A stretch of 63,681 nt of DNA, filler included, from Rhabdomonas costata (Eukaryota): assembly GCA_019059605.1 (NCBI GenBank). It is 25 parts of 25 records of this genome, joined end to end, with 100 filler letters (N's around TTAATTAATTAA, not from the genome) between each part and the next. Parts side by side here need not be neighbours in the genome. Positions count along the whole stretch, not along the records: positions 15,322 to 17,776 come from JAHMHO010003341.1; 24 more parts are not named here. One strand, written 5' to 3'. The translations under genes and the position numbers were made by a program. Positions 3,281 through 61,233 of this stretch are shown in pieces. Numbering within the stretch: position 1 is the first letter of the stretch; every line of letters starts with the position of its first letter. The notes below the pieces were generated by a model. The model saw nothing but the letters and a program-made list of their open reading frames with translations, searched no databases and was not told the origin of the DNA.

Positions 3281-3469
3281 GGTGGTCGGGCCCATCGTGT
3301 CATGTCTTGAGTATATCATGTCTCCTGACAGAACTGACAGGAGGACCCTACCCACGCAGAACAGGAAAGCAAGCAAAAAGAAAAAACTGAAGAAACATCC
3401 CAACAGAAGCCAGAGCAGTGGCGTAGCGAAAGCAGAAATGGCCCGCATTCCAACCCATCCTTCCGACCC

Positions 3470-4167
3470 CACAGCCGCCCCACTGAGCGAGTTGCACAGC
3501 AGTGCTGTGGTATCCCCACTGCCAGTTAGGAGGTGACCTCCCTCCGGGCTGAAGCTTACACAAAAAACGCAACCATTGTGGTGGGCGAGCTTCAACAGCT
3601 GCTCCCCTGTGACAAGGCTCAGCATCCGCACAGTGCCGTCGTTGTAAGCAACAGCAGCGCGAACACCTGCGATTGCCCCGACAAACGAGCCCTTCGCACT
3701 AGAAACAGTGGAGCACTACACAAGTAAACAAGGGGTGATTTCATCGGTTTAGCTATGATTCCCGAACGATTAACAAGGCTCCTCCAGTCACACAGTTCAA
3801 AACTAGCAGTCGGGAGCGCGTTAGACGGGTACCCCCCGCACTGTGCCTCCGCCGTACACTCCGACCAAAAAGAAAAAGCAAGGGACCGAGAGACCGACCA
3901 AACGTAGGGAAACAGTAAGTGGAAGAGTGGAGGCCCCTGATTCGCACCACAGGGAGATATAGCGCAGTGTTCAATGCTGCAAACGCCAGCGAACATCTGG
4001 GGCCGTGGCCTTTTCCGCAGCTCCTCCGAAACCACACTTCCTACCCACGGGGACGGGCACTCCCGCCCTGAGCACAGCAGCACCCCTACCTGCACCACCT
4101 CTTTGGGGTGCAGTCGCGCCAGCACTTCACCCAATAGGTCACCGGGAAGCCGATCAACCTTGCCCAT
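3470..4167 (-). CDS. F-box/WD40-repeat protein, 5' part (exons 4167-3948, 3666-~3470)
   Basis: ATG at 4167, then F-box-like VDRLPGDLLGEVLARLHPKEVVQV. A GT-AG intron 3947-3667 in phase 1 joins to give IEHCAISPCG-VRAAVAYNDGTVRMLSLVTGEQLLKLAHHNGCVFCVSFSPEGGHLLTGSGDTTALLCN, two recognisable WD40 repeats. The end of the second exon is approximate. Confidence 0.8.
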
Positions 4168-5669
4168 CACCACCACCGCTTCTCACCCTATATCGGAACT
4201 AGAAACGCACACAGCCCTCCAAATTCAAAAGAGGCTGAATTCAAAAACACGACAGAGCTGCCTCGCACAAGAGCAGCTGGAAGTGCAATTTGACGTCGAG
4301 TGATGAAAAGGGTCTGAAACAGTCAAGATCAGACCTGAAGCTCGAGGGAAAATGGAAGGGCCCAAAGTGCAAAACACCCGAAGGCGAAATACATGGAAGA
4401 ATGTCTGGGCCCCTACCGTTTTCGAAAAAGTGGATGCAGCGCGATAACATAGATTATCGATACGGTTACTTTTAGAAGAAAGCTGAGCGATTCAACGGCA
4501 TTCAACGGGACAGGTATGGCGATAGGAGTAGACAGCAGGAGGGCTAGAGCAGGGTCTGGGAATAACTAAAAAGTCGTCAACAGGCGGTAACAACCCAGAA
4601 TGCGGCTGCCTAAGGCCTAACATGTATGCTGGGCTCTGGCGGACCGCTACGAAAGCATGAGAAAATTAGTTCAACACATAAGGGCCGCCAAGGCCCGCCG
4701 GCAAACGAGCGGGGAGCGTCGCTGACGCTCCCATGAATGAGCGAAGGCACATCGCTATGCCGGCCGAGAGGCAGATCCGGCACAACAAGTATGGGCTGGG
4801 GGCAGGAATAAAGTCGAAACAGAAATGGAAGTTGAAGAGCAGCAATGCTGTGTTTTGTCCCAAAGATGCACAGACGGACGCAGTGGGATCTCGGAACGAA
4901 AAATAACCAGCTCGCCGAATATCTCTTCATACGTCCACGCAGCCAACCAAGCAACGCTTGATTAACGTGTCGAAAAAGTTCGACCTGCCGGAACCATACC
5001 AACCACANNNNNNNNNNNNNNNNNNNNNNNNNNNNNNNNNNNNNNNNNNNNTTAATTAATTAANNNNNNNNNNNNNNNNNNNNNNNNNNNNNNNNNNNNN
5101 NNNNNNNGTGTTGGGTGTGTGTGGGTTGTTGGGTAAGGGACCAATTAAGCGGCGGCAGAACAAGACAAATAAAGCAGCCACACGGCTCCACGGGGATGGC
5201 AAGCGATACCGTGAACAGGTGATAAATACCACGGTAACGATGGAAGAAGTGTAGTAATCGATTAAGAAGGTCTTTCAAACGAAGGATCAAAGCATCTAGC
5301 CTCCAGTGCGCACCCGACTTCCGACTCCAATGGGACCCCCTTCACGGGGGATCTACGTGTGCGCGGTGTGCGGTCGACTGCGCTGTGAAAGAGATGGCAG
5401 AAAAGACAATGTTTGATAGAATGGATTAGCAAAACCAATTTTCTCAAAAACATGTCTGTCAAACCTGCAGAGGTAAATTGGACGGGGGCAAGGGTTCGTG
5501 CGGCGGATAAAAAGCAGTGCTTGGTAGAATGGTGCTGCTGCGGGGGCAGACTGGATCGCGAGCGGGAATATGATGGTGTGTGAGGGAAGGTGGGGAGAGA
5601 AAAATGGGAAGAGGGTAATACAAAGCTCTGCCCGCCCTGGACGTTTTTCATCGACGCACACACATACAC

Positions 5670-13134: not shown

Positions 13135-14652
13135 ATGGCATCAGATGGAAAGCGGGAAGTGCTGGGGCATTACGAGCTGGGCAAGGCCCTTGGCAGCGGC
13201 TCCTTTGCCTCGGTGTGTGTATGGCATGCCGGCCCAAGGGCATCGGCCATTTTTAATTATTTTGGGAAGGGAACTGCCAGAAATCAGATTTCTCATATCA
13301 CAGCTCGTTGATATCTCCTTAGGAATCGTGAGGTTTTGGGTCTCGCATTGAGGTGGTGTATCTTCGACGAGCTTGTGCCTGTAGTGGCTGTTCTCGCTGT
13401 GACTTAGGTCCGAGAATGCACTGACCTGAACACCGGACTGAAGTGGGCGATCAAGATCCTGGATAAGAAGATGCTTGTGGACCAGAACATGGGGGTGCAG
13501 GTGCAGCGGGAGATCGCGGTGATGCTGAAGATGAAGCACCGCAACATCGTGGAGATGAAGGAGTGCTTCCAGACCTCGGACAAGGTGTACATCATCCTCG
13601 AGCTGGTTGACGGCGGCGAGCTGTTCGACCGGTGCGCTGCTTGCGTTTCGGACGTTTCGGACAACAGGGGTAAATACGGACGGATATGCTCCGTAATCCT
13701 GCCCGGAGTCCATGTGGACCTCAATAGCTCAGTGGTGCTTTGATATCCCAACCTTGACTCACATTGCCTTGGTGTCGGGGTTGGGAAGGGTGGGCGAGTG
13801 GCTGGATTTGCTAGTCTTCCAGAGGAAAAATAACGATCCACTGTATTATAGCCTATGTGGGGAAAACGGGCTAAAGGAGTTGCCCGCGAAGCGAAGAGGA
13901 TTGGAGGATTCACGCTCTTTTTCTTCAGGATCAAGGCCACGAAGAAGCTTGACGAGGACACCGCGCGGATGTACTTCCAGCAGCTCATCATGGGCCTCCA
14001 CTACTGCCACAAGCACAACATCGCTCATCGCGACTTGAAGCCAGAAAACCTTCTGCTGGTTCCTTCCCTCTCCTTGTGCCATGCTCGACCTCAAACCACC
14101 AATATGCCGGGTTTCGTTGGGCACTGGAAGATAACATCTGCTGGACAGTTGTCTGCCTTCCATGCTTTCATTGCCCCCCCCCCCAATGGCCCTGCCCATC
14201 TGGATTCTTTTTTGTGGTGCTGCTCAGAACAAGGACAACATTGTGAAGATCAGCGACTTTGGGCTGGCCAACACTCAGAGGGCGACGGACTCGGGGCGGG
14301 TGAGCGACTCCATGATGCTGAAGACGGTGTCTTCGCTTTGTCTTATTGGCGCCCCCCCCTCCCTCCCTCCAGCCCTTCCCGTCCTTTGGCAAAGCTTCTT
14401 TTTCGCTGAAAATCAACGAAGGAAATGAAAGCGATGTGATTCCAGTGGTGTCACTTGTGCATACACGCGTCCACCGTCACGCAACCCAACCTGAGCACAC
14501 GCCGTCTTTGTTATTATTTCCGTGTAGTTTAGAAAACCACTGCAAGGCTATGCGCAGGTGTTCTTCACAGAGCAGGTCCTCGATTGCTATTTTGATTCCT
14601 CCAATTTTACCCGTTTTTCTTGCTCAGGTTTGCGGAACGCCCAACTACGTTG
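13135..14652 (+). CDS. Ser/Thr protein kinase, CAMK group (SnRK/CIPK-like), 5' part, exons 13135-13212, 13408-13631, 13929-14058, 14228-14326, 14628-14652
   Basis: [30 protein letters not shown]...WAIKILDK...QREIAVM...HRNIV...[13 protein letters not shown]...[43 protein letters not shown]...[11 protein letters not shown]. Kinase subdomains I-VIII are present and all introns are GT-AG and in phase. Confidence 0.95.
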
Positions 14653-15728
14653 GTATGATTTCTGATTTCATTCCCGGTTCCCCCTCCCCCATCCACCACA
14701 CAGCTCATTTTGGCTACGGAAAGCAGCGATGAAATGCGGAGGTGTATGTGCCTGCTGAGAGAGTGGTGCGCTCGTTCTGTTGAATGGAAATGTTTATATT
14801 AAGGGAGTGGGAGGTTGGGCTGCAGATCGCTTCAAGGTGAGCGGTTCACAATTATCAGAGGATAAAAAAGAAGTATCAATTGGTACGCCACACTCGGTTT
14901 GGTTTGGTTTGGTTCGGTTGGGTTCATGATTCCATCCCTCTGGACGCTTGCATCTGGTCACCACAACAAAATAGAAAAGTCATGTGCCCTGTTGAGGGTT
15001 CAGTACCCATGGCCGCTTGCTCTCAGCTTTTCGCTATCTCTGTCCGCTCGTGCAGCGCGGCCAACTCAGGTCAGGAAATACACTAACGCCACCCATCTGA
15101 ATAGTAGCACATCCATTGAGACGATTTCGCCGACAGCGCAGGGAAGCTATAAAAGCCCGGTGCCGCTCGGTGAAAATTCTGAAAAATCATACGCATAGGT
15201 GACAAACGATGGAGGACCAGGNNNNNNNNNNNNNNNNNNNNNNNNNNNNNNNNNNNNNNNNNNNNTTAATTAATTAANNNNNNNNNNNNNNNNNNNNNNN
15301 NNNNNNNNNNNNNNNNNNNNNGGTTTGTGGTCTAAAAGCCATGCTTATGGCAGCTTGTGAATATCTAACCCTCAGAACCCACCAGGGTACGAAAATGCCC
15401 ACACAAAACCACCTCAGAATGGAGTTTTCACAAATTAACACTGAAGGGAGGGCAACATAGCTGCGTCACTGCTGTGGTGACGCCGAGGGAAGAAACCCAC
15501 CTTTCTCCGTTTCTCTGTATCCCTGTCCCTGCTGTGTGTGAGCTTCTCTATTTGACGTCGCTGCCGCATCTGTGAGCAGGGTATACTGTTGGAGAAGGTC
15601 ATCCCCGCTGACCTCACCCAAAGTATTCGTAACATAAGCACAACAATCCGTCGGAATTTAGAGTTGTGTCATGAGAGCGCGCCAAAATGGTCACCACTCA
15701 CGATGGGACCAAGACACACATCTCTGGT

Positions 15729-17570
15729 TCATCGAAACGGCATTCTTGAAACCGCTTCCCAAAAATCTGAATAGTCGCGAAGGGACTCAATCTTCGAAAA
15801 GGCATTGGTACACTTCGCCATGCTCACCGGACTCATGTGCTCCAGCACCGAAATGGCTGCATTGGCCAAAGCTTTCCAAAGCCTCTGGTTACCCCAGAGA
15901 AGGTGAACTCTCGAAAAGCCATCCACACACACGACGAAGTCTTTCGGATGCATCTCATCCGCCGTGGAGAAAACTGAATTTGCCAAAGCTCTCCAGAGAG
16001 CTACGTTATCCAAGAGTAAAATGACCCTGGAGTAGCCCCCCACCAGCTGGGCAATGTCACGAGAGTTTACTTGACTCAGAGTCGAATGAGTGGCACTGCT
16101 CAAGGCATCCCAAAGATCCTCATTTACACTTAGCAGTGGTATCTTGGAAAAGCTATTGACACAGTTTGCCAGGCTGTGCGGTTCCATCTGACCCACCAGG
16201 GATAGGGAAGCTTCGGCCAAAGTTGTCCACAAAACTTCGTCATCCTCAAGAAAACGGTTCCTGCAAAAGCTTCTCGCGCAGTTGGAGAGGTCCTGCGGAC
16301 GCATTACCGGTGCCATCTCAACCGTTGCCTGGGCAAGAGCTTCCCACAGCCTCTGAAGGAAATAAGCGTTGGAAAACCCCATCACGCAGCTGACAACATC
16401 AACAATGTCCACCTCTTGCCCACTTTGCAGCATCGAAATAGAACACTGGGCCATCGATTCCCAGAGGACTTCGTACTCAGCAAAACATGACGCACGCGAG
16501 AACCCGAGCACGGACTCGGATATACCTCGGGGGGACATCTGCCTCAACGTTGAAAGTGTTGCCTCCGAAAGGGAATACCAAAGATTTCCGTTGCTGTAAA
16601 GAAGACCAACCTTTGAAAACCCACTGACACAGTTAGCGATTCCCCTGGGTGGCATGCTTTCTAACGCAGGTACCACAGCTTTCGCCAAGGCTCCCCACAG
16701 GTCCTGGTGGTCACTGAGAAGTAGGACTTTGGAGAAACCATTGCCACAGGTTGCCAAATCAATGAAGTTCATCTGCCGTGTCATTATCGTTGCAGAGTTT
16801 GCCATTGCTTCCCAAAGCTTCTCATTTTCGAGAAGAAACCAGACCTTGGAAAGGCCATTGACTGAATTCGAAAGATGCTGTGGGCTCATTTGCTCTACAA
16901 GAGAAACCGCTGCTTCGGACAGTTTCTCCCAGAGAGCAGCATCGTTCCGCAGGGCGTTCACCTTCGAAAACCCATTTACGCAGTTGGCCACATGCTGCGG
17001 ACTCCATGTCGAGAGGCATCCGGCTGTCTTTGACAGCGCTTCCCACAGGGATTGATCACCGAGAAGAAAACGCACCTTTGAAAATCCAAGAACACAATTC
17101 GCCAGAAAATGACTGTCGAATGATGGTGATTTTGAGACAGCCACCTCAGCGAGGGCCTCCCATAGCTTTTGGTCAGTAAGGCTCCGCTTTAGCTTCGAAA
17201 AGTTGTTGACGCTCCGAGCCACATCTTCTGCATCGAAGCTCGCTGCTGCAGCAATCACGGCCTCCACCATGTGGGCCTGGAAACCTAGGTTGCGCGCACT
17301 CGCAGGCTGGGAAATCAGCGAATGAATTTTTTGGGTGTGGCGCTTATTGTACATACTATCGCTCTCCAGCGGGTCTTGCCTTGCATCCCGGGCGTACCAG
17401 CGTGCACGAAAACGGTAACTTGGAACTTGCACGTGGCCCATCGAATTATTGCATAAAACCCTCCGAGCGACTGCGCACATCGGGAGTACATATTTGTTCG
17501 AGATACGACGAACTCCAAAGCGGCGTTGATTCAACAGAGCGTCCTGGAGTCCTCGTCTCGCAGATTGCAT
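15729..17570 (-). CDS. 613-aa intronless helical-repeat protein, 13 tandem ~39-aa OPR/HPR-like repeats, Arg-rich N-terminus (possible organelle targeting)
   Basis: Uninterrupted ORF starting at a true ATG. Repeat consensus PxxxANCVxGFSKVxxLxx(D/N)xxLWxALAxAxxxxxxxM runs from residue ~114 to the C-terminus. The N-terminal ~60 aa are rich in Arg and poor in acidic residues. Confidence 0.85.
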   Translation of the reverse strand: MQSARRGLQDALLNQRRFGVRRISNKYVLPMCAVARRVLCNNSMGHVQVPSYRFRARWYARDARQDPLESDSMYNKRHTQKIHSLISQPASARNLGFQAHMVEAVIAAAASFDAEDVARSVNNFSKLKRSLTDQKLWEALAEVAVSKSPSFDSHFLANCVLGFSKVRFLLGDQSLWEALSKTAGCLSTWSPQHVANCVNGFSKVNALRNDAALWEKLSEAAVSLVEQMSPQHLSNSVNGLSKVWFLLENEKLWEAMANSATIMTRQMNFIDLATCGNGFSKVLLLSDHQDLWGALAKAVVPALESMPPRGIANCVSGFSKVGLLYSNGNLWYSLSEATLSTLRQMSPRGISESVLGFSRASCFAEYEVLWESMAQCSISMLQSGQEVDIVDVVSCVMGFSNAYFLQRLWEALAQATVEMAPVMRPQDLSNCARSFCRNRFLEDDEVLWTTLAEASLSLVGQMEPHSLANCVNSFSKIPLLSVNEDLWDALSSATHSTLSQVNSRDIAQLVGGYSRVILLLDNVALWRALANSVFSTADEMHPKDFVVCVDGFSRVHLLWGNQRLWKALANAAISVLEHMSPVSMAKCTNAFSKIESLRDYSDFWEAVSRMPFR

Positions 17571-17876
17571 TACTCAGGACAAAAGCTCACTCTGAAAGAG
17601 AATCAGGCCGGAGGTCGCGAGGGCACAACCACACCGAGGCACTTCTCAGCATAAATCAGAATGCGTGGGGCACTGCACTCTTACGAGCCTCAGTGGTCTA
17701 CTTCATGTCGAGGAACCACCAATCGCAGGTATCAAACACACAAATCCTTCAACATGAACTCCCCAGGAATCCCCGGNNNNNNNNNNNNNNNNNNNNNNNN
17801 NNNNNNNNNNNNNNNNNNNNTTAATTAATTAANNNNNNNNNNNNNNNNNNNNNNNNNNNNNNNNNNNNNNNNNNNN

Positions 17877-18570: not shown

Positions 18571-20429
18571 CTGTCGCACCCACCCACCCACACAAACAGT
18601 CACACATCCACAAGCGCTTCCCTATATACATGCAGACACACAGACTAACCAACCCACAGTCGATCACTTGCCTGCCTCGAAGTTAAGGCATCCGTGCGAG
18701 CAACAGAGGGTTGCGAACAGTCTCTTGATTTCCCTGCTCGGCAGTGTTACGACTCATGAGCCAAATAATTTTAATGAATAGAGAAATTCATTTTCAAACG
18801 GAGACCAAAATTCGTTTAAACGGAGGCCAATTAAAAGAAGACCAAATTCAAACTAATTACCACGGACGATTTAACTTGGCAGCCGAGAAGAGGAACACAA
18901 GCGTCCAAGTGTTTTCCCATTGGCGAAGATGGAGGAAATTAAGCCCATCTATGTGCCTCGTAATCTGTGGACGACTGAACCACTTTGAGAAAGATTGAGA
19001 AAGATTTCACTCTTTTGGATAGCTGAACACGCGGCTTGATGCCGCAACAGTGCGACAAAGGGGAAATTCAAAGGCCCCAACTTGTGCTCTTTCCACATCC
19101 AATTCACAGTAATGTGGATTTTAGCATGCCCCCATGATCCGCATCTAAAAGCCACACATCAAAAGGTCTAAAGGAGAACGAAAAGTACTCGGTTGAAGAA
19201 CCTTGCGGTGCTTGGACGCTGCCAAGGATTTCCGGCGAGTTGTCGGCCCGTGGGAGGACCCACTAAGAGAGGCCTGTGAGATCTCCTCTGCACAAACCAC
19301 ATTCTCACCGAGTCCAAACCCCAGAGGAGTCAAAGAAAAAACCCTCGTCTTAAAAAGAACAGGCCACGACGGCCACCAACGAACAAAAAAAAGCATTCCG
19401 AAAGCGTTGAACAACCTTATGGAAAACACTTCCTTCCGTCAAAAACAAGAAACCTTTTGGATCTGGAGGTGGGGCAGCCCGATCGGTGCTCTTCACTACC
19501 CGCTTGCGAGTATGCTGAGAAGAAAAGACACACAGAACGTGCAAAAGGCATAACTCTGGTGAAAGTCTTTTCCGCCTCCTTTCGACCATGGAGAGCCGGG
19601 GTGGTAAAAGAGAGTAAGGAAACAATTTAAGAATGAGGACCGCTCTGGGTTGCAGTGCTATTGACTCAGTGTAACGAAGCAAATCTACAAAACGACAGAT
19701 GCTCTTTTGTGCACCAGCAAGCGGAGACGGTCGCAATAGTGCTTAATAGTGCTCCTACGAACCTTGTCTTACAATTGACGAGCTTTTGTAGACCGCAGGT
19801 GGCTGATTGTGCCCTGTTGCCGATATGGGTGTAGTTGTGTACCATTGCATTCCCAGACAAGGGATCACGTCCAAGACGCAGCTGGGACTTCAAGTTGAAC
19901 AGCTCAGCTTGAGTTCGCACAAACGTCATCACCTGAGCAAAGGGTCACAAAGACATTAACAAGCTCAAGAAAGACATGAACAACCTCTTGTAATAAAACA
20001 AGAGCACGGATGTCCTCTGGGTCCACCCAAGGTTTCCTCTATAATGCCCATAATTTGTTGTGTCTTCAGTTTCCTCCCTGAGAGGCTCTCATCGAGTTTC
20101 CTATGCAAACTTACTTTCCGTTTCTTCGATATGCGCGGAAAGGCAGTTCCTCTCTGAAGGTTCTCTGTGTCCCGAATATCTGGTTCACCCCCCCACACAC
20201 ACACACAGGATACTCTCCCAAGTTGCAACAAGCCTCGAAATTCCCTCGAATTGTTTTTGCACTCGCTTTGTTCAAGAGCCCTGCAAGGAGCGCGCGCGCG
20301 CACACACACACACACATACAACACACACNNNNNNNNNNNNNNNNNNNNNNNNNNNNNNNNNNNNNNNNNNNNTTAATTAATTAANNNNNNNNNNNNNNNN
20401 NNNNNNNNNNNNNNNNNNNNNNNNNNNNA

Positions 20430-21635
20430 AGAGATGTAAATGAAATATTTACATTTATTAAAGATAAAAATTTAATTAGTGTAACATATAATTCAGTTGA
20501 TATTCTTATACAAATCATTGACAAATTAAAAGACATTTTTATAATCTTTGATGAATTTCATAATTTATCATACACCAATATAAATGATAAAACAAATGAA
20601 ATGTATAAACTTATAAATAATAATACATATAACAAATTATATTTATCAGCGACACCTATTTTCAATATTAAATATGATAAAATATATAAATATTTGTGGA
20701 CGGATGCGATTAAAAATAAATATATCTGTGATTTTAAATTAATTATATTGCAACAAGATGAAAACTTTAATCAATTACTTAATGAATTTCAAAATAGTAA
20801 TAAACTTGCAGTAAAAGTTTATAATTTATTAAAAAATATGTTATATTATGGAAGTAGGAAATGTATTTGTTATTTATTATCAATTGAACAAGCAGAAGAA
20901 TTTCAAAAAATTACAATTTGGATGGCAGAATTCCTAAATATAAATTTGTTATCATGGATAATAACATATAATACATCATTTTTAAACCGACAGAAATATA
21001 TGAATGAATTTAAAGAATCAAAAGAATTGTCATTATTAATCAATGTACACATACTAGATGAAGGAATAAATATTCCAGAATGTGATTCAGTATATATCAC
21101 AAAACCAAATGACAATATAATAAATATTGTACAACGAATGAGTCGAGCAAATAGAATAACATCAAATAAAAATTTATGTTATATTTATATGTGGTGTTCA
21201 GTAAATAAAATGAAAATGATATTGGATTATATATCAGACAAGACACAAAATATAATAGAAAATAAAATTATAATTAATAAAATAAATAACAATAATATAG
21301 AACAGAATATAGATAAAACACAAACTATAACAAAAAATGATGACAATAGTATAACTAATAAAATAAAGAATGACGAACAAAATATTGAAATACAAAATGT
21401 AATAGGAAATACAAATATATCAGAAATACCGTTACAAATAATGTGTGATAATACTAAAGAACAAAACATAAATAAAACTGATTTTAATTGTAAATTTTGT
21501 GGTAAAAATTTTACTGGAAAAAATTATATGGTTCGTCATATAAACATATACTGTAAATATGCAAAAAATAATATTATAAAAGAATCATCTAATAAATTAA
21601 TAAAAGTACAAGATGGACTACAAAATAATTTATGA
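20430..21635 (+). CDS. Superfamily II (DExH, ResIII-like) helicase with C-terminal zinc finger, 5' truncated
   Basis: The frame is open from the contig start, upstream of the listed ATG: ...ISVTYNS...IFIIFDEFHNL (motif II), LYLSATP (III), LLINVHILDEGINIPECDSVYI (V), IVQRMSRANR (VI), then an Asn-rich linker and CKFCGKNFTGKNYMVRHINIYC. Confidence 0.9.
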   Translation, partial: RDVNEIFTFIKDKNLISVTYNSVDILIQIIDKLKDIFIIFDEFHNLSYTNINDKTNEMYKLINNNTYNKLYLSATPIFNIKYDKIYKYLWTDAIKNKYICDFKLIILQQDENFNQLLNEFQNSNKLAVKVYNLLKNMLYYGSRKCICYLLSIEQAEEFQKITIWMAEFLNINLLSWIITYNTSFLNRQKYMNEFKESKELSLLINVHILDEGINIPECDSVYITKPNDNIINIVQRMSRANRITSNKNLCYIYMWCSVNKMKMILDYISDKTQNIIENKIIINKINNNNIEQNIDKTQTITKNDDNSITNKIKNDEQNIEIQNVIGNTNISEIPLQIMCDNTKEQNINKTDFNCKFCGKNFTGKNYMVRHINIYCKYAKNNIIKESSNKLIKVQDGLQNNL

Positions 21636-21652
21636 ACCACAATAATAAGATA

Positions 21653-21679
21653 TTAAAAATATATTTTATATATTTTTAA
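21653..21679. terminator. Perfect palindrome (12-bp stem, 3-nt loop) between convergent viral-type genes; candidate mimivirus-type 3'-end signal
   Basis: TTAAAAATATAT-ttt-ATATATTTTTAA, 17 nt after the helicase stop codon. Confidence 0.6.
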
Positions 21680-21764
21680 CATATAGTCTTTTATTTTTTG
21701 TTTTTTCCTATTTCTATAGCCAAATTATAAATTTTCAATATTGGTAATTTTAATAAATTGAAAT

Positions 21765-22118
21765 TCAGGCTATTATTATTTTTTTTAATTTATCTGCGAT
21801 ATTATTTAATAATTTTTCATATCGAATATCTTTTTTTTCAAGTAATTTAATCGATTCATTAAATTTTTCGAGTAATTTAATCAATTCATCGAATTTATCA
21901 GGTTCATTTTGTTTTTTGCATGCAGTTTTCATATGTCTTGTTAAATTATCACGTCTTGAGAAATTTTTCCCACATTTTGGACATATATTTTGTTGTGTAT
22001 TTTTTATTTTTTGTTTTTTCTTAATTATGACACATGGTGTCTTTCTATTTATATGAGTTTTATAATTTGAGATTTTATCAAATATTTTTTCACATCTTGG
22101 ACATGTATATGTAACCAT
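21765..22118 (-). CDS. Small double C2HC/C2H2-type zinc-finger protein of giant-virus type (117 aa)
   Basis: MVTYTCPRCEKIFDKISNYKTHINRKTPC...CPKCGKNFSRRDNLTRHMKTAC followed by a short coiled-coil. The N-terminal YxCxxC...HxNRKxPC pattern is one I associate with Mimiviridae gene families. Confidence 0.8.
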   Translation of the reverse strand: MVTYTCPRCEKIFDKISNYKTHINRKTPCVIIKKKQKIKNTQQNICPKCGKNFSRRDNLTRHMKTACKKQNEPDKFDELIKLLEKFNESIKLLEKKDIRYEKLLNNIADKLKKIIIA

Positions 22119-22172
22119 TTTTAAATAAAATATATTTGATATGTCTATGATATATATACATATGTTTAAATG

Positions 22173-22203
22173 AATTTAAAATTTTTTGTAAAAATTTTAA
22201 ATT
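22173..22203. terminator. Perfect palindrome (14-bp stem, 3-nt loop); candidate mimivirus-type 3'-end/polyadenylation hairpin
   Basis: AATTTAAAATTTTT-tgt-AAAAATTTTAAATT, starting 8 nt downstream of the stop of the minus-strand ORF 22685-22212. Confidence 0.7.
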
Positions 22204-22211
22204 TATTATTT

Positions 22212-22685
22212 TTAATTTTTCTTTTTATTATCATTGTTATTATCATCATTAATGATATTGTCATTGATATTTAATTTAACAGGCATAGAAATACCTGTGT
22301 CAAGTGTTCGTTTAATGTTATTGTGAATAATCGGACACAAATCAGCAGGTACTACAATCGGTGTACTTTTATCAAATGTATTTGTGCATAAACTAGATTT
22401 AGGACAATTTGGGCTATATTTAAATTGATCACATTTGGAATTTGGTTGTGTAATATTACGTAATTCACTGTCATAATCAACTAATTCGAATGGTTTCCAG
22501 AATCCATATTTATCACGTTGACAAGATTTGTTATTCACAAATTTACCACCATATAATTGATATTGTAATGGTGATGTACTTTCATATAATTCTTTCTGAT
22601 ATGCACATTTATCATATATTAATCTGTTTGAGAAACCAAACGGAACACTGCTATTTAAATCAGGTTCGTTTTCAATTTCAGTCAT
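22212..22685 (-). CDS. Conserved giant-virus-type Cys-containing hypothetical protein (157 aa)
   Basis: Motifs SNRLIYDKCAY..L.ESTSP..Y.L and LVDYDSELRNITQPNSKC...KY.P.C resemble a multi-paralog Imitervirales family (YDxCxY / VDxESEL). Assignment is from memory and needs an HMM check. Confidence 0.7.
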   Translation of the reverse strand: MTEIENEPDLNSSVPFGFSNRLIYDKCAYQKELYESTSPLQYQLYGGKFVNNKSCQRDKYGFWKPFELVDYDSELRNITQPNSKCDQFKYSPNCPKSSLCTNTFDKSTPIVVPADLCPIIHNNIKRTLDTGISMPVKLNINDNIINDDNNNDNKKKN

Positions 22686-22761
22686 AATATAATATATGTA
22701 ACATTTTTTATTTAGAAAAAATAACTATATTAAAATTAAAAAAAAAATATATTTTATATTT

Positions 22762-22860
22762 TTAATATTTTTTCATCTTATTCTTGTTTTTTTCCAAATC
22801 CACACAAATTCAGATTTTTTTTATTAAGTAATCGTGTAGATTGTGGTGGGTTCATAATGA
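22762..22860 (-). CDS. 3' end of a further AT-rich ORF truncated by the contig end
   Basis: Open frame ...IMNPPQSTRLLNKKNLNLCGFGKNKNKMKKY* with stop at 22764-22762, overlapped by a 9-bp-stem palindrome at 22743-22763. Confidence 0.4.
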
Positions 22861-24478
22861 CATTATTAACCCACCACACCNNNNNNNNNNNNNNNNNNNN
22901 NNNNNNNNNNNNNNNNNNNNNNNNTTAATTAATTAANNNNNNNNNNNNNNNNNNNNNNNNNNNNNNNNNNNNNNNNNNNNTTTTGGGGGGAAGTGACTCA
23001 TTCCGCACGGCCGAAGAGGACCAAGAGTCCTGCCGGCAGTGCGGAATGAGTCACTTCCTCCCAAAGCCTGTTACCTTGGCGTCGTTGCGCTCCATGCTGG
23101 TGGAGGCCTCTTTATTGTGATGCGTGCATTGATGGAGGAGTTTGTGTTGGTTGTCTTGCCTTGATTGGCTTTTGGTCCTTGCATCTCTGTTTTCCAGTTC
23201 GCTCTCGTATAGCTGCGGCTCTCTTGTTGGAATCGTTCTCTTTGTGAGTTGTGCGCGTTTATGCCCCACCAGGGTGAGACGAATTTCTTGGCTTTTCCCG
23301 CTTGGTCACCCGAGGGCTTGCTTCAAACGTCACGGAGGATATCTTTTGTTACCTGCTCCATTCGTGCGCGCACGCGTGAAAACACTACTTTCAGTGGTTA
23401 CATTGAAGTAAGGGCATAGTCCAGTCATGACGACTCGTCCAGTCTCTCAATGGACTTGCCTGCTTCTGAGTTTCTGGACACCAACAAACAAGTATACGCC
23501 ATTAAAGTGCCCCGCTTTCACTAAAATAAAAAGCTTGCTGCTCAAAGTGGATTGAAAAAGGGCGGATTGGACCACAGTTGCCTACCACTTTCTGTTCTGC
23601 TTCTTGATTACCCACTTGCAACAAACCTTGTCGGTGCCTTATGTTACGTGTACCGTGACGTCATACTTTTGTTCTTGAAGTGCTTTTTCGAAAGCAGCTT
23701 CCTTTGTGAAGCTGCTCTGCCGGAACATCGCAGTCCCAAGCTCACTTGTTGAGCGGGGGAACACGCATTAGAGTGGAAGACAACCAGAGTTCTGTGCTTT
23801 GCTTCTGTATGAAATCTTCTTTCTATTGCGGTGGTTGTTCACTTGACGCTGCATTGGGTGATGATTGCGTACCGCACCTTGCATGAAGCAAAGTGCGTGC
23901 ATGTTGGTGTTTTCATTTTTCTCTCTCGGTGCTAATTTGCCCGCAATATTCTGAAATTTTTAACAGCAAACATCATGCCTGTGATCTGACACACGAAATA
24001 CTGGGTCCAAATTGAATTTAGAGTTCCTCTTAGAGTTCGTCTTCTGATCTGTGTTGAACTTAAGGAGACTTATATGAAAGACCGGCTGTCGATTTCATCT
24101 CCTGCCACGATTTGTGCAGACAGACGCGACAGTGTGGGGAAACCTGAGACAAAGCGGGTTGTGAGGTCTTTGTAGGAAAGATGGCACGCTCCGGATGTGT
24201 GAAAATCTGGAGTGCCATTTAAAGTTTGCCACAATCCGAAACAGAATTCCGTGCACTTTGTGTCCGCCAGTGGGCTCCCCCACCTGGCTGTACGCCTTCA
24301 CCGGCTTATCCCGAGACATGCACTATTAATGATCGCCTTTCAATGTCCTTTCGACCGGGTTTCGTGTGCTTTCAGCTTTGATCGCCGACCCATCAGCGAT
24401 TACCTTTTCAACTTATTTCGTTCCCCACCGGGTTCGCTTTTTGTTTCACGCGCGCGTCTGCCGTGCTTCATTTGTGTC

Positions 24479-25098: not shown

Positions 25099-25906
25099 GT
25101 GTGCCAGAGAAGCTCCTATTCTCAGCAAGGGCTTCTTTTCACAAACCCTATGGAGCTTGCGATAGTTTCCTTTTGTGAGACAGCGACTATGCCGTAGGAT
25201 GAGATGCTGCTTAACAGAAATTTAGTACCATACTGTCAAAATAGATGCGATTTTGAAGCTTTTGAAGAGATTTGAGGTCTCGCCTCATTGGGAAACCGTG
25301 TTGCAAATTGAAATTCCTGCGCAGAACCCCCGTTTAATCTCCTGAATGGCCGACGGCTGGAAATCTTCACTCGGAACTGATGGGCAGCTCTTTTCGTCAG
25401 CAATGTTCACTGTCTGGATGGAACAACAAAACNNNNNNNNNNNNNNNNNNNNNNNNNNNNNNNNNNNNNNNNNNNNTTAATTAATTAANNNNNNNNNNNN
25501 NNNNNNNNNNNNNNNNNNNNNNNNNNNNNNNNGGAAATTCCCTTCTTGCTTGGAAACCTCGATTTTCGGGGCTGAAGGCGAAGCGCCTCGGGTCTTCATT
25601 TTCGATGCACAAAATGAGACAAAAATGCTGCGAGGCCGTCCTTGCACCCAAAATCGTCCATCTTTGCACTTTTCGCTTTGCATCTTCTTTTGCTGTCTTG
25701 GTTGATTTTCCCACACGCACAAACACAAACCTTGAGCGTAACAAGCACCTTCCCACGGTCGGCTTTAAATTTGCGAGCGTTCTTTGAAGTGCATTTAGGA
25801 AGTTGCTTCTTCTTCTTCTTCTTCTTTTCACCCAGTTGCAATCAGGCAAGCGATGGAAGTGTGAAACCTGGGGCTTTGCCGTGCATCCGTTTTTGTGTTT
25901 TCGCAG

Positions 25907-27587
25907 TGGTGGTTTACCGCACTCTGCAAGCCGGGGACTGGGTGCTGTTCAACCGCCAGCCCTCTCTTCATAGGGCCAGGCATGCCCTTGTTGCGTGTGG
26001 GCTTCAACCGGACTACAACTATTTTCCTTGTCTTCTGTTTTCTTCTGGGTTTTTCCATGACCAAGCAAAAGGCGTTTGCAAGACCAAGGGTACGGAAACA
26101 CCGGAGAGCGGTTGATTCCCGTGTTCTTTTGTGGATGGCCTTGACTGAACATGAGCGCCCGCCCCCACATTCCACGCTGCAAGGCCCTTGTAGTGGGGCT
26201 CAATTTTGGCACTGCTTATTATTATTATTATCCGAACATCCCAGTTTGGTGAAGCAGGGGGGTTAAGAAAAGTGGTGTGTGCTTAGTTGTTTTCCTCGTT
26301 GTGATTCGGCTTAGAGTTGCTTCTCTTTCCGACCTCGATTTTCCGGTAGACAGTTGTCGTTCTTGTGGGTATTCGGATGTACGCATGAATTTTCGGCTCC
26401 ACACTTCCTCAGTATCACAGCGATGCGGGCGCGGGTGCTGGGCAACTCCCGCACCTTGCGCTTCCACTACACCAACAACAAGGGCTTCAACGCGGACTAC
26501 GACGGCGACGAGATGAACGTCCACGTCCCTCAGGTAGGGCCCTTCGGTGCTGTCCCGAAACCAGCCTATCCCTCTCGCACCTTCTGCAGTCTTGACTTGC
26601 CCTGCTGTCGCTGGACTCGCTTGGGCCTTTTTTCTAACTGGCGCCTGCCTGCCTGTGCTGGGGTGTTGAGGTGCTCCCTCCTTTCTTCCAGGCGTTGACC
26701 CCTTTTTATGTCCATACTCTTGGTTTTCATTCCACTGTCCGGGAGCTGTCGCCACCTGAAAATTCTCGTTATCCGAAGTTGTGGTTCTCGGGAATCAGTA
26801 GTGATACGAATACAAGCTCCCCACACGTCCCAGCGCATGCTGCTGATGTCTGTGCTGAACGTGCTGAGTGTGCTGAGTGTTGTAGTGTTGGGAGTGAGAC
26901 GAATGAGCGGGAGGGCGGATGTGGGTTTGCAGTCCCCAGAGGCAATCTCGGAGGCGGCGCTGCTGATGAACGCCGACCAGCAGTTCACCACTCCCACCGC
27001 CGGCAAGCCCATCCGTGGACTTATCCAGGTCCGCACTCCAATAGCACAAAACACTCTTTAGACCCATTTTCCACCTCGAGATTGGAGGAGTGGGACTTCA
27101 GCTTTCTAAAAATTGTGTCATTGTTTTTCTTCTTTGACTTAGGGACAGTTTTGTCTGTTTGTTTTTGGGCCAGATTAAGCGCGTGTGACTGTGCGCACCA
27201 CCATGGGTTCCCATGAGCTTCTTGCACTAGGCCGCTTTCCCGTAACCTCTTCTTACTTCCTTCAGTTCGGTGAAAATATCGTACCAAGAGAGTGACGACA
27301 GGTGTCTAGGAGGACTAGCGAGGCCTATTGGCTCGAACCAGAGCGTATGGTTGTGTGGGTGCCAACTATATCTCATGCACCAGGACCACATCTCCATGGG
27401 GGTGCTGCTGACCAAGCGGGACACCCTGCTGGAGCTCCCACAATTTACCGCACTGCTGTACCATGCCGTGCACCCCTACCTCGACGGCCAGCTCCGTCAG
27501 TCCTCTGCCCTCCCTGGACAGACCGCGCTGGAGATTCCCTTACCTGCGGTGCTCCGGCCCACCCCTCGATGGACGGGGAAGCAGCTG
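25907..27587 (+). CDS. RPA1: DNA-directed RNA polymerase I largest subunit, active-site region (exons 25907-25979, 26413-26533, 26933-27028, 27384-27587)
   Basis: Spliced product [110 protein letters not shown]...[15 protein letters not shown]. The RxHYxN and RGLIQDHI features are Pol I-specific. The first intron is GC-AG, the others GT-AG. Confidence 0.93.
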
Positions 27588-28436
27588 GTTCGCCGATGCC
27601 AACTATCTCTCCTCCTCGCCGGATGGGTTCTGGTCACAATCTCCGTTTAGCGTTTTCTGGCAACGAAGTGGAATGACTTTTTGCAAAGTGAGAGAAAATG
27701 GTTCTTCAGGGTTTGCTTTCAGACCCAGTTTCTCTGGACAGATCGCAAGCCACACTACACCGGGCAGGCATTTCTGTCCTTGTCGCCGAGTTCGTATGTC
27801 CGACTTCATTTCTCATTTCGTCTCGTTTTGTTCATGAGTTCTGTTGACCAGGTCAGTGTTGCGGACAAAGAATAAGGAAGACACATGTAGTTATGGAATG
27901 TATAGAATCTGATGCTCTCATGTGTTGTTTGGTGATTTCTGCGTCGCACACACTGACCTGGTCAACAGAACTCAACAACAAAANNNNNNNNNNNNNNNNN
28001 NNNNNNNNNNNNNNNNNNNNNNNNNNNTTAATTAATTAANNNNNNNNNNNNNNNNNNNNNNNNNNNNNNNNNNNNNNNNNNNNTTTGTTGTTTTTTTGAA
28101 ATTTGTTTTCGATTTTCCTCAGGTCAGAACGCGGTTGCCTTAAATGAGTTAACTCGAAAAAGGCAGCTCTTGAAGCCATATGAAGTCAAGTCACTTTGCG
28201 CTTAAGCCGGACCTGTTGCCCCCCCCCCCATCTCCACCTCCCTCTCTGTATACCTGGAAGTTGAGAGGGAAAAGACGACCCACAAAATCGCGACTCTCAG
28301 GGGAAGAACAGGCCGGGGCATTCACTTCACAGTGTGCAGGCTCACTGCTGAATATGGGAAGGAAGGGTAGACGTTGAGTGGGCGCTTTCGGCGCTTTCAC
28401 TTGCTGACATAGTGGTCGTTGTGTATGCTGCTTCAG

Positions 28437-30535
28437 GGTACTTCACCGCTGCGAATGCCACGCTGGTTACCGCGGACCTGCCAGTGCGCTACGGCAGCCC
28501 GGTGACCTACTCCTTCGCGTTTTCAGTGAGTGGCAATAGTGTGGGGCAGGAGACGATGACCATTCCCCTTGCTGGGCTGAGGCCAGGCACTACCGTTTAC
28601 TGGCACCCCACTGAAAGCAACCTTACCGCTGTAATCACCAACTGCACCCTTCCCCAGGGCTGCGCGTGCGTCGCCGGAGCGAGCGACGTCACCTGCTCCT
28701 TGAGCCCGTACACGTTCACCACCGGTGGGAGTTTGTTCCTGTTCTTCTGGCCCTACCGTGACCCTGTGGGGCAGTGGGAGGGTAACGTCACCTTCGGAGC
28801 CTTCTCCATGGTTGGAATCACTTCCACCCTGCCCAGCTTCCCGCTGTGGGGCACGCTCTCCATCCTGGCCACACCCCAGACCTACCCTGCGGTCAACCTG
28901 CCCTACAGCATGATCGCCATAATGGTCAGAGTGGGCGCAGACCTGGACTCTGCTGGTGGGGAGAACATCACGATTCCTTCCGCCCTGATTACGCAGAACG
29001 CGACTGCCCCAGAGAGCTCCGTTCAGTTCACCCTAGGATACAACTGCAGTGCCGGGCCGATCCCCAGCTCGGGGATGAGCTCGTGCGGGCTTCCCGTAAA
29101 TGGTTCGTACAGCTGTCCCCTCGGAAGGGGCGCCATCCCTGCGCCCTATCCCCAGGTCTTCTCCATGGTGAGCACGGCACACAACCTTGTGTGTCTGTTC
29201 TTCCATCCTGTCTCCACCGTGGTGTGCCCGCACACCGTTGCGCTGAACGTGAGTGGGACGTCCTACTTTTCCGTGAACTCCACTGCCAACCTGAACCTCA
29301 CCGCGACATTGACCCCAGTGAGTCTGGAATCCATTGTTCCCATCCGCAGCCATGTCCCGGCGTGGCAGACCGTGAATCTCACCTTCGGACTGACGGTTAG
29401 CGGGACCTCACCTTTTGGAGAGAGCGCCACCATCAGCGGGCAGAACATCTCCCAACTGGGCATGAGCGTCGGGGGAAGCGCTTCTCAGCAGTGCGCCATC
29501 CTGAGTTCTGCAATTTGGTCCTGCCCACTGGCATCAGACGTGCACTGGACGTACCCCAACACCACTGCGGTGCTAAGCTTGCTGCCCAGCTTGACCTATA
29601 TTGGGCCCTGGTCGGGCTCGGCTGTGTTCCTCGCGGGCTGCACTCTCCCCGGGGATCCTGACTTCAACTTTACGGTGTTTGCTCAGATGACGATGGCGGT
29701 GCAGACTTACCCCGTGTATCCCGTACCCCAGTCTGTGGTGACCACTCAGGTCAACCTCACTCTGACTGCTGCACCCGTGCGTGACGTCTTTCTGATCGTG
29801 TACAATGCCCACTTTTTTTCTGACAACTCGACGAACTTCACGGCGATCCCGGGATCGATGTCGTGGTCTCTGGGCGCAAATGCATCCGGCGATCCCTTGA
29901 CGCGTTGCTGGGAAGTTTCGCAAAGCGCTGTGGGCTACGCTCAGATTTGCAACATCACCGTTAATCCCAGTGGAAGTCGGTTCCTCTTCCCCAACCAACT
30001 CACTTCGATATACATACGGTTTCTACCCAACACTCTGGTCACCATGGGGCAATGGAACTTTAACGTCACGTACAACAGCACGTATTTCGATACGACTTCC
30101 CTGGCAACGTTTCTCATCCCCATGGCCAACACCACCTTCTCGTACATCAGCAGCTTGGAATACATCTCCCGGACTGTGGCCACGAGCCACCTCAGCTTGA
30201 CCGCGACGCATGACTCCCGTTTGGGTGGGGAGACGCTGTATATCAGCGCTGATCGAGTTGATATGACTGGAACCTTCGGGTTCACCCCACTGTGGAACCT
30301 GGACACTGACAATATTGGCACTGCCCAGCCATGTAGCCTGATTTCGAGTTTGGACCTCTGGAGTTGTGCCCTGGGCACTCCTCTTTTTAACGATACCAAC
30401 AACCGTCATGTGGACGTCTTTCTGTACTGGATTCCAGTCACCACCACTGTGGGTCCTCTTAGTCTGCCTCTGAACACTCCCCTGTTCTACTTCAACGCTA
30501 CGCTCTTTCTTAACCAAACTTTGACACCACCAACC
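28437..30535 (+). CDS. Large exon (>=699 codons) of a probable secreted/surface glycoprotein with ~5 tandem 125-150-aa beta-rich units
   Basis: cttcAG acceptor ending 28436 and an open frame to the contig end. Thr/Ser/Val/Pro-rich, almost no Lys, many N-x-S/T sequons. Recurring motifs G.E..TI, C...(W/Y)SC.L and L...P....G.W. Confidence 0.8.
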
Positions 30536-61024: not shown

Positions 61025-61233
61025 CTGGAGGAAAAAAAGCAGCATCACGTCACAGCCAGCTCCCACAACCCCCGCCAACGAAATGTCGCGCCACCACAAA
61101 TCAGATAGCAAACCACCCCCACACACCCAACACNNNNNNNNNNNNNNNNNNNNNNNNNNNNNNNNNNNNNNNNNNNNTTAATTAATTAANNNNNNNNNNN
61201 NNNNNNNNNNNNNNNNNNNNNNNNNNNNNNNNN

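Follow-up and report, generated by a model that had tools for sequence, protein, structure and literature searches.

Helical-repeat solenoids of the OPR, HPR and FASTK types play a major part in organelle RNA biology, and the way in which they read RNA is still poorly understood. Among them, RESC6 of Trypanosoma brucei (MRB3010; 8fn4/8fni chain 6) belongs, as a helical-repeat subunit, to the mitochondrial RNA editing substrate-binding complex, and the gRNA's 3′ end sits in a charged RESC5/RESC6 crevice, according to the available sections of PMC12936278. The OPR proteins of the Chlamydomonas mitoribosome keep single-stranded 3′ ends of rRNA in an inner groove lined with Lys and Arg (PMC8660880, available part). 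The HPR proteins, with a strict unit of 37 aa (Hillebrand et al. 2018), are now placed inside the OPR family (PMC13126933, in excerpt), and the FAST_1 domain of the FASTK family (FAST_1, FAST_2, RAP; human FASTK and FASTKD1-5) overlaps the HPR motifs (PMC6212722, in excerpt). A further set of helical repeats is found in the SKWP-repeat proteins, which constitute the type III effector family RipS, XopAD and Mlr6331/6361; these are very large, multi-domain proteins with repeats of about 42 aa, the unit of which reportedly resembles the repeat region of a RAP protein (PMC13667924, in excerpt). The protein described here, P0001 from Rhabdomonas costata, belongs to the known OPR/HPR/FASTK/RESC6 group of mitochondrial and plastid RNA-handling proteins. 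Within it, P0001 is divergent and its repeats are unusually regular, but it is not a new kind of protein.

The window, the whole stretch of 63,681 nucleotides that was analysed, consists of 25 contigs of 2446-2455 nt each, arranged by size, with N44-TTAATTAATTAA-N44 linkers between them. Since these are unrelated contigs joined by linkers, the genuine genomic context of the gene is limited to 2,455 nt. The features of this contig are given below in the orientation of the gene, with the repeat units delimited by anchoring on the xFSK motif.

15322..17776, no strand assigned: contig of the gene, 2,455 nt, GC 0.512, bounded by the linkers 15222-15321 and 17777-17876
17571..17776, minus strand: 5′ flank, 206 nt, with stops in all three frames
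15729..17570, minus strand: complete reading frame of P0001 (613 aa) without interruption, starting at an ATG, stop codon at 15729-15731
17391..17570, minus strand: Arg-rich N-terminal extension, residues 1-60, a presumed organellar presequence by composition
17235..17357, minus strand: pre-array helices, residues 72-112, possibly a degenerate capping repeat (AF2 model)
15732..17234, minus strand: repeat array, 13 helical units each about 39 aa long, residues 113-613 (xFSK register and lag-39 identity)
17118-17234, minus strand: R1, 39 aa (xFSK register, as for all units)
17004-17117, minus strand: R2, 38 aa
16887-17003, minus strand: R3, 39 aa
16770-16886, minus strand: R4, 39 aa
16653-16769, minus strand: R5, 39 aa
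16536-16652, minus strand: R6, 39 aa
16410-16535, minus strand: R7, 42 aa
16302-16409, minus strand: R8, 36 aa
16185-16301, minus strand: R9, 39 aa
16068-16184, minus strand: R10, 39 aa
15951-16067, minus strand: R11, 39 aa
15834-15950, minus strand: R12, 39 aa
15732-15833, minus strand: R13, 34 aa
15322..15728, minus strand: 3′ flank, 407 nt, with several stops per frame in three frames and no further recognisable coding piece

The gene is real and intact, and it encodes a 13-repeat helical solenoid protein. The reading frame was recovered at exactly the coordinates, length and lack of interruption proposed in the initial annotation, with an in-frame TGA two codons 5′ of the ATG. Introns do occur elsewhere in this genome, as the same annotation had stated, since the Pfam matches to Pkinase, RNA polymerase Rpb1 and DUF5672 on other contigs of the window are split. 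The tetranucleotide profile of the contig is typical of host-like contigs (mean r 0.60), and the correlation with the intron-bearing kinase and Rpb1 contigs reaches r 0.74. A tblastn comparison with 151 relatives revealed no coding piece in the flanks, RAP included; the rows outside the ORF were at chance level, and none lying wholly outside it had E<0.1. The other 24 contigs of the window contained no paralogue of P0001 at E<=1, and searching the window for Rfam families and tRNAs returned nothing.

The proposed array of 13 tandem repeats with near-invariant FSK/FSR and LW motifs was confirmed. Nine of the 13 units are exactly 39 aa long, the last being shortened by the C-terminus, and the [LF]W anchors are spaced by 39 residues in 11 of 12 intervals. 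At a lag of 39 there are 141 identities, compared with 32.3 +/- 5.4 in 2000 shuffles (z=20; shuffle maximum 55), and the lags of 78 and 117 gave z=14 and 16, respectively. The repeat consensus is P-Q-x-(L/V/I)-A-N-C-V-N-G-F-S-K ... L-W, in which W is present in 13/13 units, S, K/R and L in 12/13 each, and F in 11/13, the remaining two having L or Y. Because the repeats share a mean pairwise identity of 34% and Tandem Repeats Finder detected no tandem repeats at the DNA level, the array is old and not the product of a recent amplification.

Membership in the group follows from several sequence comparisons, which bear out the kinship with OPR, HPR and FASTK suggested earlier. The best PDB sequence match of P0001 was RESC6 (8fn4_6; phmmer E 7.2e-9, query residues 134-416), and RESC6/RESC8 was the nearest Atlas cluster (score 0.92); P0002, P0003 and Atlas clusters carry a precomputed RESC6 (PF26188) label. 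Among 1.84 billion representatives, phmmer found 269 matches with E<=1e-3, of which 58 had E<=1e-10 and two had E<=1e-30. The lineage-specific family that had been supposed is not supported; P0001 is instead a divergent member of a widespread superfamily. The closest relative, P0002, is 38% identical by global alignment and has no additional domain past its final repeat. Pfam domains were scanned at E<=1e-3 in 148 of the 150 listed matches (P0005 was left out and P0002 scanned separately); among these listed relatives, FAST_1 was present in 105/148, RAP in 49/148 and DUF1601 in 45/148, and fusions to pseudouridine synthase, RRM and deaminase modules also occur among the relatives. P0001 itself reached no Pfam family in these scans: hmmscan gave no row for FAST_1 (PF06743; gathering cut-off 27.4 bits), DUF1601 (PF07671; 25 bits) or RAP even at E<=10, and the ORF had no MTES_1575 or DUF559 row. 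The absence of a C-terminal RAP domain from the ORF, noted at the outset, is thereby upheld. P0002 reached 20.6 bits for DUF1601, which is below the cut-off. A C4 match of P0001 (20.1 bits, cut-off 27) was judged spurious.

The profile comparison with HPR repeats proposed in the initial annotation yielded an in-register alignment. The P0001 repeat profile was aligned by hhalign to 38 repeats of 37 aa, picked with a motif regular expression from eight RAP-bearing relatives, with a probability of 83.5% and E 8e-6 over 30 columns. The 39-aa unit stays in register with the classical HPR unit, P-Q-x-L-A-N-x-x-W/N-A/G-F-A/S-K ... L-F/W, and its inter-helix loop is longer by two residues. P0001 likewise has the OPR/HPR helix-A core PQxLANxx(W/N)A(F/L)AK and, after it, the L(F/W) with which helix B begins.

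Structure prediction supported the expected all-helical solenoid. The AF2 model has a mean pLDDT of 84.1 and a pTM of 0.76, each unit comprising helix A (about 12 aa), then a short helix, then helix B (about 17 aa). Ahead of the array, helices 72-86, 89-93 and 95-111 were modelled with a pLDDT of about 70-88, and residues 1-60 with a pLDDT <55. Foldseek placed RESC6 and RESC8 among its top matches, along with a mitoribosome chain of Toxoplasma, mL116 of Polytomella and mitoribosome chains of Chlamydomonas (E 3e-10 to 1e-5), and PPR-RNA complexes matched at E about 1e-4. In VIA superpositions, RESC6 covered model residues 110-611 with Z 27.2 and an rmsd of 4.2 over 443/453 residues, followed by 7pkt_Q (22.1), 9i05_Xj (22.1), 8a22_Xd (21.6) and RESC8 (20.6). 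RESC, OPR and HPR chains fell in the range of Z 16-27 compared with 11-13.7 for the ARM/HEAT proteins, importins and catenins, which excludes the generic ARM/HEAT scaffold that the initial annotation had named as the outcome speaking against its reading. The solenoid of P0001 is homologous to the 37-aa HPR unit, and its predicted fold superposes best on RESC6 and then on mitoribosomal OPR/HPR chains. The fold relatives include structural subunits without demonstrated RNA contact, namely the Polytomella ATP synthase chain 6rd4_2 (Z 16.9) and RESC6 as the partner of RESC5.

The closest described system is RESC6, which is the best match in both sequence and fold (Foldseek E 3e-10) and, like P0001, forms a right-handed solenoid that is helical throughout and has no enzyme domain. 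However, the two share only about 15% identity, and the repeats of P0001 are far more regular; the likeness rests on sequence and fold and does not imply RNA editing or a RESC5 partner in this organism. With the HPR/OPR proteins P0001 shares the in-register repeat core, a presumed organellar-type N-terminus and superpositions of Z 21-22 on mitoribosomal chains of Toxoplasma (9i05_Xj), Chlamydomonas (7pkt_Q/O/P) and Polytomella (8a22_Xd, mL116). Many HPR proteins also lack RAP, and the 39-aa unit lies within the 38-40 aa quoted for OPR, both according to the excerpted text of PMC6212722. The period nevertheless differs from the 37 aa of strict HPR, slot 9 (counted from the P of the consensus) mostly holds Asn where the classical motif has Trp, and the PPPEW motif of strict OPR, as given in that excerpt, is absent, with Trp alone kept as L-W. 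P0001 also differs from the FASTK family in having no FAST_1, FAST_2 or RAP match of its own, although FAST_1 is common in its listed relatives. The resemblance to bacterial DUF1601/SKWP repeats, suggested initially, proved to be real at the sequence level: the helix-A core VNGFSK is shared, reading LVNGFSKWP in P0009, P0023 and P0071 and CVNGFSKV in P0001, with phmmer E down to 2.7e-26. P0009, P0023 and P0071 carry 17, 8 and 9 SKWP motifs, respectively, mostly 42 aa apart, whereas P0001 has a period of 39 aa, 613 residues in all, no SKWP or SKW motif, no RdRP-like, kinase or other effector module, and a eukaryotic context, and is itself unmatched by DUF1601.

Most likely, P0001 is a solenoid without a nuclease that is encoded in the nucleus and targeted to an organelle, and that binds RNA or acts as an RNP scaffold. 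Residues 1-60 contain 11 R and 1 K against 1 D and no E (net +11), in agreement with the Arg-rich N-terminus described initially, and this composition is the basis on which the extension is presumed to be an organellar presequence. The gene would be carried in the nuclear genome of an intron-bearing eukaryote, and the Arg-rich N-terminus would direct the protein to an organelle, with the mitochondrion as the likeliest one. Once imported, the solenoid may bind RNA, either single-stranded or at an end, on the polar side of the A helices, where a stripe of Q/N/N/K (slots 2, 6, 9 and 13) would form the RNA-contacting surface. We infer from helix periodicity and from the family that this stripe faces the concave groove. 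Over its four columns, 19 residues are basic and 3 are acidic (net +16), with K/R at slot 13 in 12/13 repeats, and the array as a whole has a net charge of -11; a net-acidic repeat region is unusual for an RNA-binding solenoid. The contacts would be largely with the backbone and by charge, as in the solved OPR-rRNA complexes, and would follow no simple one-repeat-one-base code. P0001 may thus stabilise or present RNA, or be an RNA-contacting subunit of a mitochondrial ribonucleoprotein; as there is no nuclease or enzyme domain, it would work through binding alone. Taken as a whole, an organelle-imported solenoid of the OPR/HPR/FASTK/RESC6 type without RAP, binding RNA by its groove and without a simple code, is the reading that we consider probable.

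Other functions can be weighed on the same repeats. The initial annotation proposed a modular reader in which each repeat recognises one nucleotide and slots 6 and 9 specify the base through a decodable code. Its letters at both slots were reproduced exactly (columns 7 and 10 of the repeat alignment); the two slots are variable among the repeats (entropy 2.51 and 2.35 bits) and are spaced by three residues on helix A, sharing its polar face with the K/R of FSK. The PPR-RNA complexes among the fold matches also fit such a reader, and a thesis cited in the accessible part of PMC13126933 names an OPR motif position "expected" to set specificity. However, at least eight other columns are equally or more variable, and in the repeats of relatives N is the consensus at slot 6 (71/85) and slot 9 (66/88), counts that are biased towards the consensus because these repeats were picked with an HMM built from P0001; the repeats of P0002 have N at these slots in 5/8 and 6/8 cases. 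In the hhalign alignment, slot 9 falls on the Trp that is conserved in the classical HPR motif ANxxWAFAK, which suggests a packing role. The solved OPR-RNA complexes, in the available text of PMC8660880, bind mainly charge-to-backbone, and within the text accessible to the literature search no OPR/HPR code was found apart from the thesis citation. Since both slots coincide with the Asn positions of ANxVNxFxK, the consensus throughout the family, the decodable code was left without support, and a reader of this kind appears quite improbable. A protein-protein scaffold of an organellar complex without RNA binding of its own, comparable to RESC6-RESC5 or to the OPR-like subunit, of ASA2 type, in chlorophycean ATP synthase, is unlikely, if less so. 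It agrees with the acidic array, with the fact that the best structural match, RESC6, is the heterodimer partner of RESC5 (PMC12936278, in excerpt), and with the same fold in the Polytomella ATP synthase chains 6rd4_2 and 6rd5_3 at Z about 17. The conserved basic/polar stripe, by contrast, is a feature of the RNA-groove binders of the family (PMC8660880, in excerpt), and most relatives are associated with RNA-linked modules, RAP and the fusions described above among them; groove binding of RNA is the preferred reading.

The extent and origin of the gene were considered in the same way. As the contig ends only 407 nt past the stop codon, an additional exon could lie beyond it, and a RAP or other C-terminal domain beyond the 3′ flank would make P0001 an ordinary HPR-RAP or FASTK-like factor. 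Introns occur in the genome, R13 is short with a tail off the consensus, and RAP is present in about a third of the listed relatives, all of which would suit an incomplete gene model. This is nonetheless very unlikely, given that the stop codon is clean, the 3′ flank is matched by no relative, and the two closest relatives, P0002 and P0004, lack RAP; P0002 (493 aa) likewise terminates directly past its final repeat, and P0004 (723 aa) carries no domains but FAST_1 and DUF1601. A bacterial-type SKWP/DUF1601 repeat protein, brought in by assembly contamination or recent horizontal transfer, seems far-fetched, despite the strong matches to the SKWP-motif proteins P0009 (E 2.7e-26) and P0023 (2.8e-18) and to the DUF1601-rich P0006 (E 6.9e-29), and despite at least one foreign contig in the assembly (20429-22880, GC 0.21). 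The GC and tetranucleotides of the gene's contig match those of intron-bearing host contigs, the best two matches are of the short FAST_1/DUF1601 type and not of the giant effector-like type, the period and the lack of SKWP motifs differ from those of the effectors, and the Arg-rich presequence is of eukaryotic style. No relative was confirmed in 185,579 prokaryote species genomes by a pattern scan that detects close relatives only. Scans of metagenome contigs with P0001 alone and with a P0001+P0002 alignment confirmed no relative, and the scan with P0006 returned helicase-domain matches only; P0006 is not taken here to be bacterial. The suggestion that the gene had been retroposed or horizontally acquired found no support: the 407-nt 3′ flank lacks an A-tract, the tetranucleotides are host-typical, and the prokaryote genomes scanned yielded no close relative. 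A spliced-leader relic was also tried as a sign of retroposition and rejected, the 15-nt pattern with <=3 mismatches having two matches in the window, none in the gene's contig, against 3.3 expected.

The sequence tie between P0001 and the SKWP proteins supports a single superfamily that comprises effector repeats and organellar RNA binders. It is conceivable, though doubtful, that the regular 39-aa ANCVNGFSK...LW array represents a distinct eukaryotic sub-branch between HPR/OPR and the SKWP/DUF1601 effector-like repeats, in which departures from Asn/Asn tune binding to defined organellar RNA; the basis for this idea is that only two relatives reach E<=1e-30 among all representatives searched. 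If true, it would provide a sequence link between effector repeats and organellar RNA binders, and the array would be unusually clean material from which to derive a recognition rule for HPR/OPR proteins. For now, P0001 is one further divergent member of the superfamily, from a protist and on a 2.4-kb contig. Its short, highly regular and nuclease-free array could suit binding studies as a model.

The open reading frame at 15729-17570 on the minus strand encodes P0001, a protein of 613 aa with a stop codon two codons upstream of its ATG. From residue 113 to the C-terminus, it consists of 13 consecutive units of 39, 38, 39, 39, 39, 39, 42, 36, 39, 39, 39, 39, and 34 aa, with the Trp anchors spaced by 39 residues in 11 of the 12 intervals. 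At a lag of 39, identities were counted at 141 positions, compared with 32.3 ± 5.4 in 2000 shuffles (z = 20). The 13 tandem repeats of about 39 aa described in the initial annotation were thus reproduced, as were the near-invariant F-S-K/R and L-W and all letters claimed for slots 6 and 9, the repeat positions, counted from P, that it had proposed as an RNA base-recognition code. Its Arg-rich N-terminus (11 Arg, one Lys, one Asp, and no Glu in residues 1–60) and the lack of a RAP domain in the ORF (Pfam scan) were found as described. The 407-nt 3′ flank contained stops in every frame, and 151 relatives gave no significant match there. Since the repeats shared a mean identity of 34% (range 18–54%) and Tandem Repeats Finder detected nothing in the DNA of the array, the array is old and maintained at the protein level.

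No Pfam model was reached by P0001 itself. Its best sequence match in the PDB was trypanosome RESC6 (E = 7.2e-9), and an HMMER search against 1.84 billion representatives yielded 269 matches at E ≤ 1e-3, 58 at E ≤ 1e-10, and 2 at E ≤ 1e-30. The Pfam scan covered 148 of the 150 matches listed, with P0005 left out as too long and P0002, the closest relative, scanned separately. Among these 148, FAST_1 was found in 105, RAP in 49, and DUF1601 in 45 (E ≤ 1e-3), the respective counts per batch being 29, 7, and 10 of 39; 45, 28, and 20 of 63; and 31, 14, and 15 of 46. The consensus of the relatives, FxPQxLANxxWAFAK...LF with an ExDG-type C-terminal block, is the classical HPR/OPR-RAP pattern.

When the 13 repeats were aligned by hhalign with 38 repeats of 37 aa, chosen via a motif regular expression from eight RAP-bearing relatives, the two sets were in register over 30 columns (83.5% probability, E = 8e-6), with a gap of two residues in the inter-helix loop. 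The 39-aa period therefore corresponds to the 37-aa HPR unit lengthened by two residues in the loop and lies within the 38–40 aa given for the OPR unit in an excerpt of PMC6212722. In a recent review abstract (PMC12691811), 39-aa tricopeptide repeats are called "apparently missing," which we treated as a question of naming rather than kind, because the OPR range covers 39 aa. The RESC6 match, the prevalence of FAST_1 among the matches listed, and the hhalign result upheld the proposed OPR/HPR/FASTK-type repeats. P0001 is best described as a divergent and highly regular OPR/HPR/FASTK/RESC6 superfamily member without RAP, a placement that we regard as very probable and that leaves the suggested lineage-specific family unsupported.

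The AF2 model of P0001, built from a 20-sequence alignment, had helices throughout (mean pLDDT 84.1, pTM 0.76), each unit consisting of helix A (about 12 residues), a short helix, and helix B (about 17 residues). The top Foldseek ranks (E = 3e-10 to 1e-5) were held by RESC6, RESC8, RESC9, and RESC4 together with Toxoplasma and Chlamydomonas mitoribosome chains and Polytomella mL116, followed at about 1e-4 by PPR-RNA complexes and importin/adaptor HEAT proteins.

VIA comparisons of the P0001 model
RESC6: Z 27.2, rmsd 4.2 Å, 443/453 residues
7pkt_Q: Z 22.1
9i05_Xj: Z 22.1
8a22_Xd: Z 21.6
RESC8: Z 20.6
6rd4_2 (Polytomella ATP synthase chain): Z 16.9
Importins and catenins: Z 11-13.7

A generic ARM/HEAT scaffold, which the initial annotation had raised against its own reading, was rejected, because the Z values of the RESC/OPR/HPR proteins lay above those of importins and catenins. 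The predicted fold groups specifically with the mitochondrial RESC/OPR/HPR solenoids.

The likeness to bacterial DUF1601/SKWP repeats, noted in the same annotation, was confirmed in sequence by SKWP proteins matching P0001. SKWP motifs numbered 17 in P0009 (E = 2.7e-26), 8 in P0023 (2.8e-18), and 9 in P0071 (5.5e-10), with a commonest spacing of 42 aa. The helix core reads LVNGFSKWP in these three relatives but CVNGFSKV in P0001, which contained no SKWP motif and does not belong to the SKWP family. Pfam placed shikimate kinase domains at the ends of P0009 and P0023; an excerpt of PMC13667924 reports that the Mesorhizobium SKWP effectors Mlr6331 and Mlr6361 also end in such domains and likens the helical-repeat unit of SKWP effectors to the repeat region of a RAP protein.

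Several relatives carried further domains. In P0003 (565 aa, JGI source), a classical HPR/FAST_1-type array was joined to a C-terminal cytidine-deaminase-like domain with both H-A-E and P-C-x-x-C motifs (APOBEC_N E = 1.2e-4, under the cut-off); such a fusion would amount to a helical-repeat counterpart of the PPR-DYW editing factors. The array was accompanied by an RNA pseudouridine synthase in P0041 and 2 of 46 relatives in alignment A3, an RRM in 1 of 63 (alignment A2) and 1 of 46 (A3), a FAD-binding monooxygenase in 1 of 46, a ResIII/DEAD helicase in P0006, and a WXG100-like N-terminus in P0019; methyltransferase fusions also occurred.

An HMM from the 13 repeats matched repeats in 39 of 152 proteins and yielded 111 repeats (13 from P0001, 8 from P0002, and 90 from others), a sample biased to consensus-like repeats because P0001's own HMM picked them. 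In this biased sample, Asn occupied slot 6 in 71 of 85 repeats of the others and 5 of 8 in P0002, and slot 9 in 66 of 88 and 6 of 8, whereas slot 9 of classical HPR is the conserved Trp of ANxxWAFAK. Both slots are therefore the conserved family core, somewhat degenerate in P0001, rather than hypervariable specificity positions. Columns 1, 3, 16, 19, 20, 23, 33, and 37 of P0001 were at least as variable, and the decodable slot 6/9 code found no support. From helix periodicity, slots 2, 6, 9, and 13 would line up as a stripe along helix A, facing away from hydrophobic positions 4, 8, and 11; these slots hold 19 basic and 3 acidic residues, and the whole array has a net charge of -11. The stripe charge fits the account, in an excerpt of PMC8660880, of mitoribosomal OPR proteins binding single-stranded rRNA ends in a groove through charge. 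Within the cited excerpts, an OPR code is sourced only to a thesis, cited in PMC13126933. It is reasonably likely that P0001 is imported into an organelle and there binds RNA or holds an RNA-protein complex together.

Short contigs have been joined into a pseudo-scaffold to form the window, which is not one continuous genome stretch: 24 spacers (2455-2554, 5008-5107, then every ~2,553 nt), each 44 N + TTAATTAATTAA + 44 N, a linker with stops in all frames, separate 25 segments of 2446-2455 nt sorted longest first. Adjacency across any spacer carries no meaning. Ordinary eukaryotic gene fragments were present in other contigs.

Intron-interrupted gene fragments
13408-14406, plus strand, protein kinase
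25618-27647, plus strand, RNA polymerase largest subunit domains 2 and 3
61234-62439, plus strand, DUF5672 protein
3149-3715, minus strand, WD40 protein

Single Pfam domains were split over separate ORF pieces, namely Pkinase (profile positions 15-92 and 86-132), Rpb1 domain 2 (89-112 and 110-152, then domain 3), and DUF5672 (13-102 and 85-164); the contigs are thus genomic DNA of an intron-bearing host. In such a genome, the uninterrupted 1.84 kb of P0001 is notable but not unique in the window, since contig 28084-30535 carries an open stretch of 2.18 kb.

Retroposition or horizontal acquisition, both proposed in the initial annotation, remained unsupported, because the composition was host-like, the ORF flank held no poly-A relic, and pattern-based scans of 185,579 species genomes confirmed no close relative in prokaryotes. 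The P0001 contig (15322-17776, GC 0.512) grouped with the host: GC was 0.48-0.565 in 23 of the 24 other contigs, and its tetranucleotide profile was in line with those of the other host-like contigs (mean r 0.60; 0.74 to both the kinase and Rpb1 contigs). Pattern-based scans of JGI metagenome contigs likewise confirmed no close relative, and a spliced-leader pattern search of the window gave chance-level matches only, outside the P0001 contig.

Composition marks contig 20429-22880 as foreign (GC 0.21; mean tetranucleotide r -0.03 to the rest of the window); its source may be viral or organellar, or a different organism present in the sample.

ORFs of contig 20429-22880
20430-21632, plus strand, helicase (Helicase_C E = 3e-11, DEAD)
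21768-22175, minus strand, C2H2 zinc finger

In many contigs, the first 10-30 nt were purely G/T (e.g., 2555-2569, 5108-5137, 45939-45968, 58685-58704) and the final stretches purely C/A (e.g., 2440-2454, 61119-61133). Within the terminal 15 nt, six starts and ten ends among the 25 contigs exceeded 87% G/T or C/A, with more at lower cut-offs. Such ends resemble relics of G/T-only degenerate amplification primers; if so, the DNA would be whole-genome-amplified, possibly from a single cell.

28352-30535, plus strand, 728-aa frame open across its entire contig

This frame gave no Pfam match and an uninformative best Atlas score of 0.84. Its Ser, Thr, and Asn content is high and N-x-S/T sites are numerous; it may be a piece of a large surface glycoprotein.
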